From Candidatus Anstonellales archaeon (GTDB lineage: Archaea; Micrarchaeota; Micrarchaeia; Anstonellales; J096): a DNA stretch of 64,000 nucleotides. The translations under genes were made by a program, and so were the position numbers. Of this stretch, positions 3,943 through 16,855 are shown one piece after another; the stretch's first letter is position 1, and each line of letters opens with the position of its first letter. The DNA lies in contig JAWAFI010000001.1 of assembly GCA_038890615.1 (NCBI GenBank), positions 194,611 to 258,610 of the forward strand, read 5' to 3'. Under the pieces are notes generated by a model. The model was not told the origin of the DNA. It ran no database searches and saw only the letters and a list, made by a program, of their open reading frames with translations.

Positions 3943-5394
3943 TTAGCTGGGTATGCCAAAATCCTTTTTTATCCTGCTGATTCCTATACCTACAACTAGC
4001 TTACCAAACCTTGGCCCCTTTTCCTTACCTATCAATGATTGGTAAAGCAGTGAAAAAAGAGCTGATTTGTCCATTGACCTTTTCTCTGCAAACTCAAAAA
4101 CGCTATTGTGGACTGTTAATGGGTCTGCATCGTTTTTAAGCAAGGCGAAGAAGGCCCTGCTCACTTCTGTAGGGCTTGGCTTGTACTCAACCCTGTACTG
4201 CTCAGGGACAAGCCCCCTTTTCACCCATTCTGCATAATACCTGTCCATCCATGTTCCGCTTGAGCCATTTACCTGGAATGAAATAACCCCTGAGTAGATG
4301 TCTGGTATCTGCCTCCCACCACTAAGCTTTGCTGCTATTGCTTTCTTCAGTTCGCTTTTGTTGGTTGGCTCCTTCTCAAGCGCCCTGTTGTAATCGTCTG
4401 CAAACTCCATTATCCTCTCCATGCTCGTGACTATGTCCTTGTTCTCATGCAAATCAGGCCTTAGGAGCATGTACTTTATGAGCTCAGGGGGCACTAGCTT
4501 AAGGAGGTCGCTTGCGCCCATGCCAATGCCCTTTGACTTGGAATACTTCCTGCCGTTGAAAAGTATGAAGCCATACTTGTAGCCTATTGGCGGCTCTGCC
4601 TTGAATACCTGCCTGAAGATTTCAACCAAGGTGTCCCTGCTGCCTCCTTTTGTAAAATGGTCCACGCCTGCTCCTTCAATGGAAGTGCCGAAGTAGTGCT
4701 GCCAGGCAGGCCAGTGGAGCCTCCAGGTGAGCTTGTAATTGTGCTCTATGAGCATATCCTTCCCCCTGTAGCCGCACCCTTTTGTGTAACCAGCATCTCT
4801 ATCGCATATATACTCATAGTCGCTCTGAGTTAGCCTAAGCACCCTTGTTGTTGCTATCCTACCGCAGGATTTGCATATGGGCATTATTATTGACCACTCA
4901 TCAGGCAGCTTCCTCATGCTTGTTGCCTCTATGATTTCCCTTACCTTCTTTTCCTGCCCAATGTAAAGCCGGGCGTAGTAGTCAAAAACCCCTGCCTTGT
5001 AGAGCTCGTTTGCTCTCTCTATCTTGACATGCTCAAAAACACCCAGCTCTTTCATTACTGCAATGGCGTCCTGAAGGTAGTATTCCCCAAAGGAGGTGCC
5101 TTTGTAAGGCACATTGCATAGGGGCTTGCCAAGGTGCTCATTAAGCCAATCAGGGCAGCCAACAGGCACTGAGTCAAATGCATCAAGTATGTCTGCAACA
5201 AAGTAGAACTCTGCTTTCTTCCCCTTGGTGATGAGCTGCTTCTTTATTGAGTAGGGGTAGAAGAATTCGCATACTGTGCCCAAGTGGGTAGGCCCTGAGG
5301 TTGTCATCCCTCCTGAAATTACGTATGGCTCCTTTTTCTCCCTTGCCACCTCATCTGCAAGCTGCTCGCTCCAGTGGGAATGCTCCATAGCCAT
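3943..5394 (-). CDS. lysS: Class I lysyl-tRNA synthetase
   Basis: TSGPTHLGT (HIGH-like), CKSCG and C..GC zinc sites, KLTWRLHWPAW, GVDH, KYSKSKG (KMSKS). Confidence 0.95.
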   Translation of the reverse strand: MAMEHSHWSEQLADEVAREKKEPYVISGGMTTSGPTHLGTVCEFFYPYSIKKQLITKGKKAEFYFVADILDAFDSVPVGCPDWLNEHLGKPLCNVPYKGTSFGEYYLQDAIAVMKELGVFEHVKIERANELYKAGVFDYYARLYIGQEKKVREIIEATSMRKLPDEWSIIMPICKSCGRIATTRVLRLTQSDYEYICDRDAGYTKGCGYRGKDMLIEHNYKLTWRLHWPAWQHYFGTSIEGAGVDHFTKGGSRDTLVEIFRQVFKAEPPIGYKYGFILFNGRKYSKSKGIGMGASDLLKLVPPELIKYMLLRPDLHENKDIVTSMERIMEFADDYNRALEKEPTNKSELKKAIAAKLSGGRQIPDIYSGVISFQVNGSSGTWMDRYYAEWVKRGLVPEQYRVEYKPSPTEVSRAFFALLKNDADPLTVHNSVFEFAEKRSMDKSALFSLLYQSLIGKEKGPRFGKLVVGIGISRIKKDFGIPS

Positions 5395-5417
5395 AGTTGA
5401 GCGCCTTGTTTTAAAAA

Positions 5418-5675
5418 CTATATGAAGCCCTTTTCTTTCAGGGCTTTCAATGTGCCGGATGTTGCCAGAGGCTTGAACCCTCCAAGCACAAGCACACCTA
5501 TTGCCTGTTTGTACTTAGTGTGGTTGAACCTTATTACAAGCTTTGGGGAAGAAGCTATCACCTTCGGCATTAGCTCTGAAAGGCCTAGGTAGCCGAATGC
5601 CTCTTGAAGCAAGGCCAATGCCTTCTCGCTGTCGCCTTTTTCAAATGCAACATACCTTTTCCTGGCTTTCTCCAT
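5418..5675 (-). CDS. rnp2: RNase P protein, Pop5/Rpp14 family
   Basis: RKRYVAF at N-terminus and TSGTLKALKEK at C-terminus. Confidence 0.8.
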   Translation of the reverse strand: MEKARKRYVAFEKGDSEKALALLQEAFGYLGLSELMPKVIASSPKLVIRFNHTKYKQAIGVLVLGGFKPLATSGTLKALKEKGFI

Positions 5676-5709
5676 AAGCCATTAAATATGGCTTCCTTAT
5701 AAATAGATT

Positions 5710-6261
5710 ATGGAGCTTCACATACCGCGCGAGCTTAGGAAGCTGAAAAGGGCTACTGCTGTTGTGCTGCCAAAGGATTTTGGCCTTATGGCTGGCTATG
5801 CAATGATAGACAAGAGCAAGGTTGTGCTTGAGGCAGGCACAGGCACAGGATTCCTCTGCTACATGCTTTCAGGCATTGCAAAAAAAGTGGTAAGCTATGA
5901 GGAAAGGCCTGAGTTTTATGAGAACGCAAAGAAGAACCTTGCCGGAAGGAAGAATGTTGTGCTAAGGAATGCAAGCATAGAAAAGGCAAAGGAGAAAGCA
6001 GATGTCATAATCCTAGACATGAAGGACGCCCCGCTTATGGTGCCAAAGCTCGTGAAAAACCTTAAGAAAGATGGAATGATGGTTGGCTACCTGCCAAACG
6101 CAGAGCAGATCTCTGCTTTTGCAAAGGCATGCAGAAACAGCGGGGCAAAGGATGTGTTCGTGGTTGAATCAATAGTAAGGGACTTCCAGACCGAGCCAGG
6201 GTTCAGGCCCTTCCACATAGGGCTCATGCACACCGCTTACCTTTGCTTTGCTAGCTGGTGA
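5710..6261 (+). CDS. trmI: tRNA m1A57/58 methyltransferase, N-terminally short
   Basis: LKRATAVVLPKD, VLEAGTGTG, YEER, ILDM, YLP..EQ, HTAYL. Confidence 0.85.
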   Translation: MELHIPRELRKLKRATAVVLPKDFGLMAGYAMIDKSKVVLEAGTGTGFLCYMLSGIAKKVVSYEERPEFYENAKKNLAGRKNVVLRNASIEKAKEKADVIILDMKDAPLMVPKLVKNLKKDGMMVGYLPNAEQISAFAKACRNSGAKDVFVVESIVRDFQTEPGFRPFHIGLMHTAYLCFASW

Positions 6262-11643: not shown

Positions 11644-13845
11644 ATGCTTAAAAAATTTAGCTACATAGCAGCTGCAAAAATAAATAAAAGTATGCCTGGG
11701 TTTATTATGCGCCTAAAGGACAAAACTTCCAAAGAAAGCAAGCAAATGGAAAATGGCTGCAAAGGAACAATAATGCCAAAGGAGGAGGAAAGGAGGTTTG
11801 GCAAGGAAGAGGCCATCCGAAGGGTAGTTAAGGCAATAAAAAAAGGATTTGAAGACACCGAGGCATTTGAAGAATTAATGAAGCTCAGCAAAGCCAGCTC
11901 AGGCAATTCAAAAGAAGAGTTGGTGTTTGCAGAGAAAGGCAATGGAAAGATGGACCTCAATAAGATGGTTGAAAGCATAGCCAATGGCCTTGACATAAAT
12001 GCCAAGGATGGCGATATGCCTCTTCTCATAAAAGCTGTTTTGGGCAACCAGAAAGATGTAGTCAAGCTTCTTGTAGAAGCGGGGGCAGCGCTATATGCAT
12101 GCGATGACCAAAGAAGGAATGCATTGGCTCATGCATGCATTAAAGGAAACAGGGAAATGGCGGGTATACTGCTGAAAAAGATGGATTTTGTTGATAGCAT
12201 AGATGGGTATGGCATGACACCCCTTATGTATGCTATAGAGAAGGAAGACTTAAAGATGGTTGAGATGCTTGTAAACGCAGGAGCCAACATAGCCCTGCAA
12301 AACAATGATTCCCTCAATGCACTTATGCAAGCTGCTGCAAAAGGCAATGTTAGGATGGTAAGATTTCTGATACAAAAAGGGGCTGAGTTGGAAAGCACTG
12401 ACAGGGAAGGGAGGACGCCTCTCATCCATGCTGTGCTGAACAAAAAAAGGAAGGTGGTCAAAGCACTCCTTGAGGCAGGGGCAAACCCAAACCATATTGA
12501 CGACTTCAAGAAAACCGCTCTTGGATATGCATCCATTCTTGGCGATGTAAGCTCAATAAGAAGCTTGGTAGATGCAGGGGCTGATGTTAAGATAAAAGAC
12601 ACCTTTAAGAGGAATTTGCTTTTTATGGCGATATCAGAAGGTCAAGAAAAGGCAGCATTGGAACTGCTTAAGAAGGGGGTAAACCCTTTTGAGAAAGATG
12701 AAAGCATGAGCACAGCGCTTATATCAGCTTCAGGTTATGGAAGCAAAAAAGTGGTAAAAGCACTGCTAAAGAAAGGGGTGAGCGTAAATGACAGTGATTA
12801 CCTGAAGGCAACCCCTTTGATCAAGGCCTCAAGAAACGGGCACATAGCCATAGTAAAAATGCTGCTAAGGGCTGGCGCATCAGCAGATATGAAGAACTGC
12901 GATGGAAGGACAGCGCTCATAGAAGCAAGCTATGAAGGGCACCATAAAGTTGTAAGGGAGCTCTTGAAAGCAGGGGCAAACCCAAACGAAAATGACTTTT
13001 ACGGCAGAAGCAGCCTTTATTATTCGTCTGCAAATGGTTTTTACAAGGTAGCAAAGGAGCTGCTTAAGAGCAGAAAAATAAATCCAAACATATGCGATTC
13101 AAATGGAACAACCCCGCTTATGAAAGCGGCCTATGAAGGAAATGTCAAGATCATAAATATGCTTGCTGGAAGGGGCGCTGATTTAGAGAGAAAGGATGCG
13201 CATGGGCGCACTGCCTTGTTCTATGCAATAGAAGGAGGAAAGAAAGAGGCATTGAAGGCACTGCTAAAAAATGGCGCAAACCCTAATGCAGAAGACAAGG
13301 TAGGAAAAACCGCCCTGATGTTTGCTGTATCAAGAAAATCAGCTGAGCTAGCAAGAATCCTGATAAAGGCAGGGGCTGATGTGAATGCAAAGGACATAAA
13401 GGGCAAAAATGCTCTTATGAGGGCTGCCCTTTATGGCCATCTTGAGATACTGCTAGAGCTGTTAAAGGCAGGGGCTGATGTGAATGACCAGGACATCTAC
13501 TTAGTGGATGCGCTGATGCACGCAACGCATGAAAAGAACCTGGAATGCATGAAAGCGCTCCTGGAAGCAGGCGCAGACCCAAACCAAAAGGACATAAAGG
13601 GAAGGACTGCCCTTACGATAGCAGTCAAAACAGGGTATTTTGAAGGGGTTGAGCTCCTTCTCAGCAAAGGGGCAGACCCCTACATAAAGGATGGGGAGGG
13701 CATAACTGCGCTGGATATGGCATATGAAAAGAGGACAATGGAGCTGTTCAAGAAGCATATGGAGAAGGTGCAGAAGGCAAAGGCAGAAAGTAAGGATATG
13801 GAGGAGGCGAAGACTGTGGAATACAAGAGGGATGAAGGGGAATGA
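11644..13845 (+). CDS. Large ankyrin-repeat protein
   Basis: About 17-19 tandem 33-aa G.TPL..A...G....V..LL.AGA..N units; start could be a downstream Met. Confidence 0.93.
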   Translation: MLKKFSYIAAAKINKSMPGFIMRLKDKTSKESKQMENGCKGTIMPKEEERRFGKEEAIRRVVKAIKKGFEDTEAFEELMKLSKASSGNSKEELVFAEKGNGKMDLNKMVESIANGLDINAKDGDMPLLIKAVLGNQKDVVKLLVEAGAALYACDDQRRNALAHACIKGNREMAGILLKKMDFVDSIDGYGMTPLMYAIEKEDLKMVEMLVNAGANIALQNNDSLNALMQAAAKGNVRMVRFLIQKGAELESTDREGRTPLIHAVLNKKRKVVKALLEAGANPNHIDDFKKTALGYASILGDVSSIRSLVDAGADVKIKDTFKRNLLFMAISEGQEKAALELLKKGVNPFEKDESMSTALISASGYGSKKVVKALLKKGVSVNDSDYLKATPLIKASRNGHIAIVKMLLRAGASADMKNCDGRTALIEASYEGHHKVVRELLKAGANPNENDFYGRSSLYYSSANGFYKVAKELLKSRKINPNICDSNGTTPLMKAAYEGNVKIINMLAGRGADLERKDAHGRTALFYAIEGGKKEALKALLKNGANPNAEDKVGKTALMFAVSRKSAELARILIKAGADVNAKDIKGKNALMRAALYGHLEILLELLKAGADVNDQDIYLVDALMHATHEKNLECMKALLEAGADPNQKDIKGRTALTIAVKTGYFEGVELLLSKGADPYIKDGEGITALDMAYEKRTMELFKKHMEKVQKAKAESKDMEEAKTVEYKRDEGE

Positions 13846-14309: not shown

Positions 14310-14903
14310 CTATATTCGCTTGCATAGATTGAGAAAGCAGCAGTTAGCGCATTTCCTCTTATGATCTGTTGGTTCTGGAATTGATTCTTGCCTTGCTATT
14401 CTGTCAATTTGACCTAGAATGTTCTTGAACTCCTCTATTCTAACTGAGTTGATAGGAACCTTTAGAACATCGTTTGTTTTTAGAAATTTGATATAAGCAG
14501 AAGGAACGTAAAAGCCTAATTTTTCCAGTATAAGATGCGCTTCTCCTATGCATTGGTACTTTATTGATCGGAATAATGATTTTGGTCTGTTCATATTTTT
14601 AACTTGAATTGGATACGCTTCAGCAACAGCATAGTTAATGGCAACGCAGTCAATAACCGTAAGGAAGTGGAGTTTTTCATCTTTCAGGAAAACATTGTAA
14701 TGCTTTTCAAGATTCGGGAATTCCTTGATTATCTTGGTTCTTTTGGAAGCTTGGGTAAATTTTTCATGTATTCTTCTCCCTTCAAATTCCTTGACTGTGG
14801 TCTTCTGAGGAATTTTAAGAACGTGCTCAAAATATATTATCCGTGGGCAAAAGCTGAAATTAAGTACGTCGCGTGCAGTGTAAAAACCTTCTTGGTTCAT
14901 CAA
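14310..14903 (-). CDS. cas4: CRISPR-associated Cas4 exonuclease
   Basis: FCPR..YF, GRRIHE, VID, PIQVK, C-terminal KCANCCFLNLC Fe-S cysteines; next to the array; ATG at 14900 is the likely start. Confidence 0.92.
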   Translation of the reverse strand: MMNQEGFYTARDVLNFSFCPRIIYFEHVLKIPQKTTVKEFEGRRIHEKFTQASKRTKIIKEFPNLEKHYNVFLKDEKLHFLTVIDCVAINYAVAEAYPIQVKNMNRPKSLFRSIKYQCIGEAHLILEKLGFYVPSAYIKFLKTNDVLKVPINSVRIEEFKNILGQIDRIARQESIPEPTDHKRKCANCCFLNLCKRI

Positions 14904-15010
14904 CTCACCAATTCAAATTCCTTGTCTTTTATTCTTTCTTCATCCAAATGGCCTATGATTATTTTAGAGGCAAAACATTCTTTGCAACTTGGTATCAAAA
15001 AAACTGCAGA
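14900..15010 (-). pseudogene. cas2: 3' remnant of cas2
   Basis: Manual translation SAVFLIPSCKECFASKIIIGHLDEERIKDKEFELVS*, a Cas2-like C-terminus (CxxC then IIG); its stop overlaps the cas4 ATG; upstream it runs into the CRISPR repeat and an in-frame stop. Confidence 0.75.
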
Positions 15011-15480
15011 GCGCTAAGAAATGGAAGTAGGGATGCAACTTGATGACGGCGATGAGATAAAAATATATGAGGGGGTTGCAGAGCGCTAAGAAATGGAAGT
15101 AGGGATGCAACACGATGAATGTGCATCGCTTGAACTCATAGAGATAGAGTTGCAGAGCGCTAAGAAATGGAAGTAGGGATGCAACTAGAGAAAGCGGAAG
15201 ACTAATTTTTTTTTAAAAAAAGTTGCAGAGCGCTAAGAAATGGAAGTAGGGATGCAACTTCCAATGAGCAAGCCTGCCTCTTCATTATATCCGCTTGTTG
15301 CAGAGCGCTAAGAAATGGAAGTAGGGATGCAACTAATTATTTTAAGTAAATTTCTTCCCAGTTTTTTTCGTTGCAGAGCGCTAAGAAATGGAAGTAGGGA
15401 TGCAACGAATACCAAGGAGTCCATATGTGCGCTGGTATTATCAGTTGCAGAGCGCTAAGAAATGGAAGTAGGGATGCAAC
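15003..15480 (+). CRISPR. CRISPR array: 7 x 37-bp repeats and 6 spacers of 35-38 bp, type V-F-like repeat
   Basis: Repeat GTTGCAGAGCGCTAAGAAATGGAAGTAGGGATGCAAC at 15003 (first 2 nt differ), 15075, 15149, 15222, 15297, 15370 and 15444; strand inferred from the ATGCAAC 3' end. Confidence 0.98.
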
Positions 15481-16725
15481 TCATTTCTTTGGGATGTAGT
15501 GCTTAGACTTCTCCTTACTCTCCTCCTTCGCCCCGCATAGCAGGTCAACAAAGAGAGATGGATGGACTACTGCATTTATAGTGTAAACCTTTACTTCAGG
15601 CCCTAATAAAGAAGCGTCTGTCTCTTTGCGGTATTCTTTTGTTAGTTTTCCCTCTAGCTCTCTCTCCTTAACCAGCCCAGGCGTCATGGTTGTATAGTCC
15701 ACGCCGTCAAAAGGTCCCCTGCTTCCTCTTTTGTAATCGCCAAAAAACCTAACCTCCTCTGCCTTATTGTCTAGAATTATATTGTACATTATTATGGGGT
15801 TGAAAGTAATGTTAGCTTGCGATTCAGCATCCTCCTTAGCAGAGGGAAAGAACTGGGTGCCATAGACAATTCTCAGAACTGGCTCTCCTTTCTCAGTAGC
15901 AGTAAAGTATACGTACATGTTGTCCACAGTATTATTGCTAAGCTGCAGCTCGCTCCTTGCTGCCACCTGCCTTAGCGGCAGTGCGTTAGGGGAAAACATG
16001 GAAGTAAAAAATCTCCCTGTAGCTCCAGCAGGTATAGTCATCTCAACTAGCCTGTTTGTATGTTGGGTCAGAAGAGCCTCTTCCATAAGCTTCATTAACT
16101 CCCTCCCAGCTAATTTTAGGTATCTTAAGCCACTCTCATTTTGAATTGCTTCTATGCCACTGCGCTTCTCTGAAGAACCGTATAGCAAATCCACTGTAAA
16201 TTCAAGCAGCCTTGCTGCCTCAGGATTGGCTTTGTAGAAACCTATAGTGTCCTTTATAATCCTTTCAAATATTTTCTCATTTTTGCCTGCAGTAAGGGAG
16301 AAACTGACATCACTCGCCTTAAGCTCCTTAGGCTTTAGGCTTGCACACACCGTAAGGATCCTTTCAGGATCCTCAAAACGCCTAATGGTAAGTGTTGACT
16401 CTGTGTTATACTCAAAAAGGTAGAGGCCTGGCTCAAGGCGGGCTTTTTTGTATTTGGTAACCTGGCTGCCTTCAGTTGCCACATTCTCCTTCCCAACAAT
16501 TATTTCCATGGGCTCTTTTACATAGAGCACAGAACCATAAACCTTCTTTGAAACCGGCTTCTTTTCCACTCTAGGCAGGCCTCCATATTCCATAAATTTT
16601 CTTACGTCTTCTGAAATGTTACCCCCGAATTTAAAATCTGCAGTCTTCCTTACTATCTCGTCATAAGGCCTTAACTCCTTAGGTACTTCGTTTTCTTTAT
16701 CAGCTTTTTTGCCTTCTAGCTTCAT
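15481..16725 (-). CDS. Hypothetical protein abutting the CRISPR array
   Basis: 414 aa, AGGTGA SD, stop codon directly adjacent to the last repeat; no recognisable RuvC, HNH or HEPN motif. Confidence 0.85.
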   Translation of the reverse strand: MKLEGKKADKENEVPKELRPYDEIVRKTADFKFGGNISEDVRKFMEYGGLPRVEKKPVSKKVYGSVLYVKEPMEIIVGKENVATEGSQVTKYKKARLEPGLYLFEYNTESTLTIRRFEDPERILTVCASLKPKELKASDVSFSLTAGKNEKIFERIIKDTIGFYKANPEAARLLEFTVDLLYGSSEKRSGIEAIQNESGLRYLKLAGRELMKLMEEALLTQHTNRLVEMTIPAGATGRFFTSMFSPNALPLRQVAARSELQLSNNTVDNMYVYFTATEKGEPVLRIVYGTQFFPSAKEDAESQANITFNPIIMYNIILDNKAEEVRFFGDYKRGSRGPFDGVDYTTMTPGLVKERELEGKLTKEYRKETDASLLGPEVKVYTINAVVHPSLFVDLLCGAKEESKEKSKHYIPKK

Positions 16726-16783: not shown

Positions 16784-16855
16784 TGGACTCTGGGGGAGTC
16801 GCACCCCCGGCCTCTCGCATGCCAAGCGAGCGCTCTGCTGCTGAGCTAAGAGCCC
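16784..16855 (-). tRNA. tRNA-Ala(GGC)
   Basis: GGGCTCT/AGAGTCC acceptor stem, anticodon arm CTCGC-TTGGCAT-GCGAG, no encoded CCA. Confidence 0.92.

Follow-up and report, generated by a model that had tools for sequence, protein, structure and literature searches.

A CRISPR array beside cas4 and a cas2 stump in a Candidatus Anstonellales archaeon is probably the relic of a type V-F system

To which type of CRISPR-Cas system did an array belong when no effector gene accompanies it, and what became of the genes that once did? The question is raised by a locus of a Candidatus Anstonellales archaeon, analysed here within a stretch of 64,000 nucleotides (hereafter ‘the window’; GenBank assembly GCA_038890615.1, contig JAWAFI010000001.1, positions 194,611 to 258,610). 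The genome, G000, comprises 846 kb in seven contigs with two N-runs and is 94% complete (some 6% of markers are missing), and the listed sequencing runs that contain this stretch are hot-spring metagenomes. In a preliminary description the array was regarded as an orphan with a Cas12f/Cas14-type repeat, which might serve as bait for a miniature effector either recently lost or acting in trans. The comparisons below lead us to hold with good confidence that the locus is a non-working relic of a type V-F system, probably of the Cas12f2 (Cas14b) kind, in which cas4, a stump of cas2 and a seven-repeat array were left behind by what would have been a single deletion of about 3.3 kb.

The array (15003-15480) consists of seven repeat copies at a spacing of 72-75 nt, separated by six spacers, each of which is unique and 35-38 nt long (Table 1), and it is the sole array-like cluster in the genome. 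Six of the repeats are the same 37-mer, from which the initial copy departs at bases 1 and 2, and the 6-bp inverted ends of the repeat give a predicted stem (z -2.1; 3/200 shuffles equally good); on the position of the array, the six identical copies and the inverted ends the preliminary description was accurate. An identifiable protospacer exists for one of the six spacers, spacer 6 (37/37, E 2e-13). The polarity of the array can be judged from eight distinct related arrays that carry a degenerate repeat, which lies at the 3′ end in all eight, so that spacer 6 is likely the oldest spacer present. For spacers 1-5 no target was found in GenBank phages using the array as query, and the comparison with plasmids returned one chance-level match (E 2); within 400 genomes of the class, spacers 1, 2, 4 and 5 had no match and spacer 3 had one of low complexity. 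Spacer 2 is contained in a contig of sequencing run X2. The exact repeat had no matches in viral contigs, and at three or fewer mismatches it was found in none of 175 other genomes of the order; a look-alike at C1:264938 was rejected as it lies inside a coding frame.

Table 1. Coordinates in the window of the array, the adjoining cas remnants and the putative junction between them.
Feature	Position	Strand	Remarks
cas4	14310-14900	-	196 aa, unbroken; TIGR00372 96 bits (cut-off 65), PF01930
cas2 3′ stump	14900-15004	-	last 34 codons and stop; stop overlaps cas4 start codon
Putative deletion junction	15004-15005	.	cas2 joined to base 3 of first repeat
Repeat 1	15005-15039	+	without first two bases
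Spacer 1	15040-15074	+	35 nt; target not found
Repeat 2	15075-15111	+	37 nt, type V-F family
Identical copies of repeat 2	15149-15185, 15222-15258, 15297-15333, 15370-15406	+	
Spacer 2	15112-15148	+	target not found
Spacer 3	15186-15221	+	target not found
Spacer 4	15259-15296	+	target not found
Spacer 5	15334-15369	+	target not found
Spacer 6	15407-15443	+	matches G000 C1:540557-540593 (-), 37/37
Last repeat	15444-15480	+	perfect copy; probable trailer (old) end; abuts stop codon of orphan ORF

The array is not an orphan in the sense first proposed, since an unbroken cas4 gene starts about 100 bp away and a remnant of cas2 abuts repeat 1. The Cas4 protein keeps the four cysteines and all of the columns that are invariant in its clade. 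Of cas2 only the 3′ third remains, about 60 N-terminal codons being missing; it was recognized by a home-made Cas2 profile (E 4.6e-10) and is 56-70% identical to the 14 best-matching Cas2 proteins. At approximately codon 61 the reading frame runs straight into the third base of a repeat, and since all 33 related arrays open with a matching repeat, the two aberrant bases most plausibly mark a junction. The same cas2-repeat join is present with 0 differences in a separately assembled 69.7-kb contig of sequencing run X1, although this run may be the source sample and its agreement is thus not independent. Microhomology at the junction would need the lost codons to have encoded Asp-Ala, a pair present in 5/48 related Cas2 proteins, and was not adopted as an explanation. 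The X1 contig passes from the cas2 stump to the right flank via a single repeat, with all six spacers skipped (window 15004-15446), which may be an assembler collapse or reflect real loss or a spacer-less strain.

Cas4 proteins usually carry the motifs ExK and QxxxY. In the clade of the window's Cas4 (alignment A2) the invariant residues are D84, Q99-x-K101, Q116 and E120, giving QxK and QxxxE, and the alignment suggests that the catalytic glutamate may have shifted position. To the left of the locus lies a gene for a 733-aa protein (11644-13845, + strand), which on inspection by eye we take to be an ankyrin-like repeat protein. On the right, the stop codon of a 414-aa ORF (15481-16725, - strand) abuts the last repeat, and a tRNA gene (16784-16855, - strand) lies 1.3 kb from the array; no attachment-site repeat was seen around the locus.

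Are the missing genes present elsewhere in the genome? Neither at the locus nor in the 94%-complete assembly was a cas12f gene (RuvC plus zinc ribbon) found, so the earlier statement that the window holds no effector is borne out and extends to the assembled genome. PF07282, NF040570, PF01867, PF03787, PF05107 and PF01905 had no match in G000 and were all positive in control genomes. Home-made profiles of Cas12f-like (36 sequences) and Cas1 (58) proteins, built from the proteins of related loci, gave nothing under E 0.5 in the six frames of G000, and an eight-row effector alignment also found no match. Cas1 itself was thus not found: one weak tblastn match (E 2e-5) lies within a 544-aa ORF that, read by eye, is presumably a thermosome subunit. 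The cas2 coding sequence directly abuts repeat 1, where relatives have 261-430 bp holding the tracrRNA and leader interval, and a tracrRNA/leader profile built from 31 effector-to-array intervals reached at best E 9.1 on G000. The best anti-repeat candidate lies within a coding frame and is at chance level, 1/8 shuffles having done as well; a promoter scan, which covered bacterial-type promoters only, was likewise at chance level. The 414-aa ORF was considered as a hidden effector and rejected for lack of evidence: it belongs to no family, has no usable Atlas match, and a comparison with 5.8 billion proteins of comparable length yielded no homologue. The family searches for type I-B genes covered PF05107, PF01905 and PF03787, all without a match, and the best Cas3-like match in G000 has the domain set of the helicase Lhr.

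The kinship of what remains points to type V-F. A single-protein Cas4 scan of genome contigs returned nothing, but the Cas4 alignment as query fetched 46 metagenome and 34 genome loci (none among viral contigs), which with seven handle loci made 87 loci annotated by script. Twenty-nine of these were dropped from the Cas4 tree (20 duplicates, seven short calls including L063, and two without Cas4), leaving 58 loci, the window and P0002, the last from a 4.5-kb contig, in a quick tree. The window's Cas4 falls in a clade of 50 rows with support of 96, made up of 34 loci labelled V-F, 13 unknown, one type I-B, the window and P0002; of the unknowns, three turned out to carry an effector and the other ten are truncated where their contigs stop. 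In 37 of the 38 readable loci of the clade a Cas12f-like gene is present, the exception being type I-B. A more careful tree of 23 rows placed L023 as sister to the window and P0002 with modest support (81/81, unstarred). In L023 the genes cas4, cas2 and cas1 share a strand, opposite to that of the array and a 627-aa effector; this is the same divergent layout as in the window, and the junction transposed to L023 would remove 3353 bp. The nearest Cas4 with readable context is 47% identical; that of P0002 reaches 61% and is without readable context.

The repeat tells the same story as Cas4 and Cas2, belonging to a family found beside Cas14-type effectors: it is identical at 19-28 of 37 positions to 23 distinct V-F repeats, against a mean best match of 13.6 and a maximum of 23 over 2000 shuffles. 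The refuting case foreseen at the outset, namely that identical repeats elsewhere would sit only beside non-type-V cas operons, largely did not arise: of 33 fetched arrays of this repeat family, 32 adjoin a Cas12f-like gene and the remaining one is truncated by its contig end. Taken with the gene layout, these relationships support the earlier proposal of a type V-F origin followed by effector loss. Which effector was lost is a separate matter. The match of 27/37 to the Un1Cas12f1 (Cas14a1) repeat given in the preliminary description is true when checked against L063, which encodes an effector matching PDB Cas14a.1 (E=0), but it is not diagnostic, because L087 also reaches 27/37 and the Cas12f2-like locus L031 exceeds it (28/37, with the same predicted fold); the specific link to Cas14a1 is therefore not supported. 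The nearest effectors (569-644 aa, including that of 617 aa in L029, the twin of L031) score 166-268 bits on the Cas12f2 model NF049972 (cut-off 450) vs 91.5 for L063 and fall outside the Cas12f1 group, and one fetched locus encodes the published Mi1Cas12f2. Since Cas12f1-type effectors also adjoin Cas4 proteins at 38-42% identity (L036, L082), the relatedness of Cas4 does not settle which subtype the effector was; judged from these sequence comparisons, the lost effector was probably Cas12f2-like (Cas14b) rather than Cas14a1.

Some of the fetched loci have features of their own. The V-F arrays of L048, L049, L055, L062 and L080 are accompanied by Cas12f2-like ORFs that, counted from the earliest possible start, measure 710-843 aa and so exceed the tested enzymes (422-603 aa). 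Some 600 extra bases separate cas2 from cas4 in L054/L056 (~5370-5980) and the cas4 call of L099 is split (1502-2150), both of which are possible cases of insertion or decay.

The single type I-B exception in the Cas4 clade is instructive. In genome G065 (87% complete; Cas12f not found) a V-F-type cas1-cas2-cas4 module is joined to the type I-B genes cas8/cas7/cas5/cas3 (L025, 8674-15718), in a different subclade from the window. On another contig of G065 an array fragment (L135:5140-5411) begins with a pair of class 1-type repeats and continues, at what is probably its old end, with a pair of V-F type. This suggests that an effector swap from V-F to I-B is recorded in the array and that the repeat changed with the effector. 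As the repeats switched to class 1 in G065, the seven V-F repeats of the window still point to Cas12f.

What, then, of the one spacer with a target? Spacer 6 corresponds to a site in codons 141-153 of an unbroken gene that encodes 401 aa and lies directly upstream of glycine-tRNA ligase; contig mapping placed this spacer on a second contig, whose depth is that of the organism. The target is a predicted DNA-repair gene, EndoQ-like in sequence: it aligns with PfuEndoQ at E 8e-50 over residues 3-388, and scores 173.8 bits on TIGR00375, under the cut-off of 326.6. The crRNA would be antisense to the EndoQ-like mRNA. Seven homologous sites in 400 genomes of the class differ from spacer 6 at 5-9 positions, from which it follows that the spacer came from this species. 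The tested Cas14-family enzymes recognize T-rich PAMs on the 5′ side, among them TTAT, TTR and TTTA (PMC7229846); judged by these enzymes, the target has no PAM, as the 12 bases that precede it 5′ are free of TT on either strand. Loss of a PAM by mutation is unlikely, position -3 being A in 6/7 relatives and within a conserved codon. In the accessible text of a survey of self-spacers, a consensus PAM was given for only 12.8% of those of type V, leader-distal self-spacers occur, and cas loss is not the dominant escape (PMC7708048), all of which fits tolerance of spacer 6. Conversely, PAM-independent cutting of ssDNA has been reported, and ssDNA-triggered collateral activity shown, for Un1Cas12f1 in the portion of the paper drawn upon here (PMC7229846), so a PAM-less guide could be costly, which counts against a purely neutral reading.

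The relic explanation can be set out as a sequence of steps. The locus would have been acquired by horizontal transfer, as suggested by the GC content of cas4 (0.36 vs 0.43-0.51 in five neighbouring genes) and by a search of 18 genomes from its family in which cas4 had no match. By analogy with L023, cas1-cas2-cas4 would have run leftward and cas12f, tracrRNA, leader and array rightward. Spacer 6, identical to a host gene, would have been tolerated because its target is without a T-rich PAM, allowing five more spacers to be added later. One deletion would then have taken the start of cas2, cas1, the effector, the tracrRNA and the leader, and may also have taken newer spacers; it was presumably recent, as the repeats and cas4 are undecayed. 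Neither interference nor uptake of new spacers is predicted to occur today. Neither an intact allele nor a close relative came to light (the best Cas4 with context being 47% identical), and the identity of the lost genes is accordingly deduced rather than seen.

Within this explanation a smaller share of the probability falls to a version with autoimmunity as the driving force: spacer 6, or a newer self-spacer since lost, would have harmed the cell, for example through PAM-independent ssDNA cutting, and the deletion would have been selected as an escape. We consider this version unlikely. It draws on the perfect match to an unmutated target, on a crRNA that would pair with the coding strand and on the PAM-free ssDNA cutting and collateral activity of Un1Cas12f1 as far as the cited text describes them (PMC7229846). 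Self-targeting is also seen for 1/6 spacers here vs 0/64 in six arrays beside an effector gene (spacer 6 serving as positive control), but this is weak, as it is a single event (chance ~6/70) in incomplete genomes; extra matches for the L099 and L008 arrays turned out to be second arrays and not self-targets. Set against such a trigger are the position of spacer 6 at the probable old end, after which five acquisitions would have come, the missing T-rich PAM, and the findings of the self-spacer survey, in which type V self-spacers are mostly PAM-less and escape does not run chiefly through cas loss (PMC7708048). It is thus more probable that the cell tolerated spacer 6 than that this spacer set off the deletion. 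Rather improbable, too, is a chronic form of PAM-independent Cas14 autoimmunity, in which a miniature Cas12f with a guide antisense to the EndoQ-like gene cut or primed on exposed ssDNA, at a cost that was tolerated through five acquisitions and ended by one cas2-to-array deletion; if true, it would be in vivo evidence that the PAM-independent ssDNA activity of Cas14 matters in nature.

Other explanations dispense with the loss of the system or with its V-F nature. That an effector and tracrRNA reside elsewhere, in the unassembled part of the genome or on a mobile element, and use the array in trans is very unlikely, although some markers are missing from the assembly, six repeats are perfect and cas4 is unbroken. 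The assembly contains no effector or tracrRNA-like region, including no Cas12f/TnpB, the leader region is gone, the best anti-repeat is the chance-level candidate described above, and in the 80 viral loci kept the match begins no earlier than about residue 350 and so takes in just the RuvC part; a live effector would, moreover, meet a perfect self-spacer. The earlier suggestion of an effector in trans is thus not upheld. Slightly lower still do we rate an assembly error or minority allele at the junction, with an intact locus held in the population. Repeat junctions are error-prone and the support comes from contigs and not reads, but the X1 contig repeats the join, among the loose ends listed none lies at 15004, and no other contig of G000 carries cas1 or cas12f. 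The least probable alternative is that the deleted genes were class 1 (type I-B): L025 demonstrates that the cas1-cas2-cas4 module can couple to such genes, yet it is just one of 38 readable loci and belongs to another subclade, and the repeats of G065 that are probably newer switched to class 1, whereas 7/7 repeats here are of V-F type.

Amongst known systems the relic most closely resembles type V-F2 (Cas12f2/Cas14b; represented by Mi1Cas12f2, as described in the accessible part of PMC7229846, and by L023, L028 and L029/L031). It shares with these loci a cas2-cas4 module of the same clade (Cas4 42-47% identical to the nearest loci), a repeat of 37 nt that ends identically on its 3′ side, spacers of 35-38 nt and a divergent layout of the L023 type, and its closest repeat is that of L029/L031. 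It differs in being without cas1, most of cas2, cas12f, tracrRNA and leader, and the likeness is to be read with the limit that the nearest effectors score under the NF049972 cut-off and are themselves only Cas12f2-like. The V-F1 locus of Un1Cas12f1 (L063) is similar in its repeat and in having a cas1-cas2-cas4 module of the wider family, but its Cas4 is only ~32% identical to the window's. A parallel to the decay itself is the fragmented CasY locus of Roizmanbacteria, which, in the available text, likewise concerns a hot-spring microbe with a small genome, a disabled type V effector and self-spacers at the old end of the array (PMC6509639). There, however, the effector is fragmented, Cas1 is kept and 11/12 self-spacers have a cognate PAM (PMC6509639), whereas the window has neither effector nor cas1, and its one self-spacer is without a T-rich PAM. 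Spacer 6 also resembles the self-spacers of incomplete CRISPR-Cas systems, with a perfect chromosomal match, a non-consensus PAM and a leader-distal position, as the consulted part of that survey presents them; the survey covers bacteria and the window is archaeal (PMC7708048). No type V-F or DPANN example of such a relic or self-spacer was found in a literature search that was thin on subscription papers.

Decayed cas loci and PAM-less self-spacers are already known, and the locus is a relic of a known system. With no effector to fish out in this genome, the value of the repeat as bait, as first envisaged, is limited to other strains or the P0002 contig, and no new effector is gained. What the analysis does provide is the reinterpretation of an apparent orphan array as a type V-F locus observed shortly after it was lost, in which both probable ends of the deletion can still be read. 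The self-spacer indicates that the system took spacers from the host's own or conspecific DNA, and it suggests that a PAM-less chromosomal guide is survivable, which has a modest bearing on self/non-self discrimination by Cas14.
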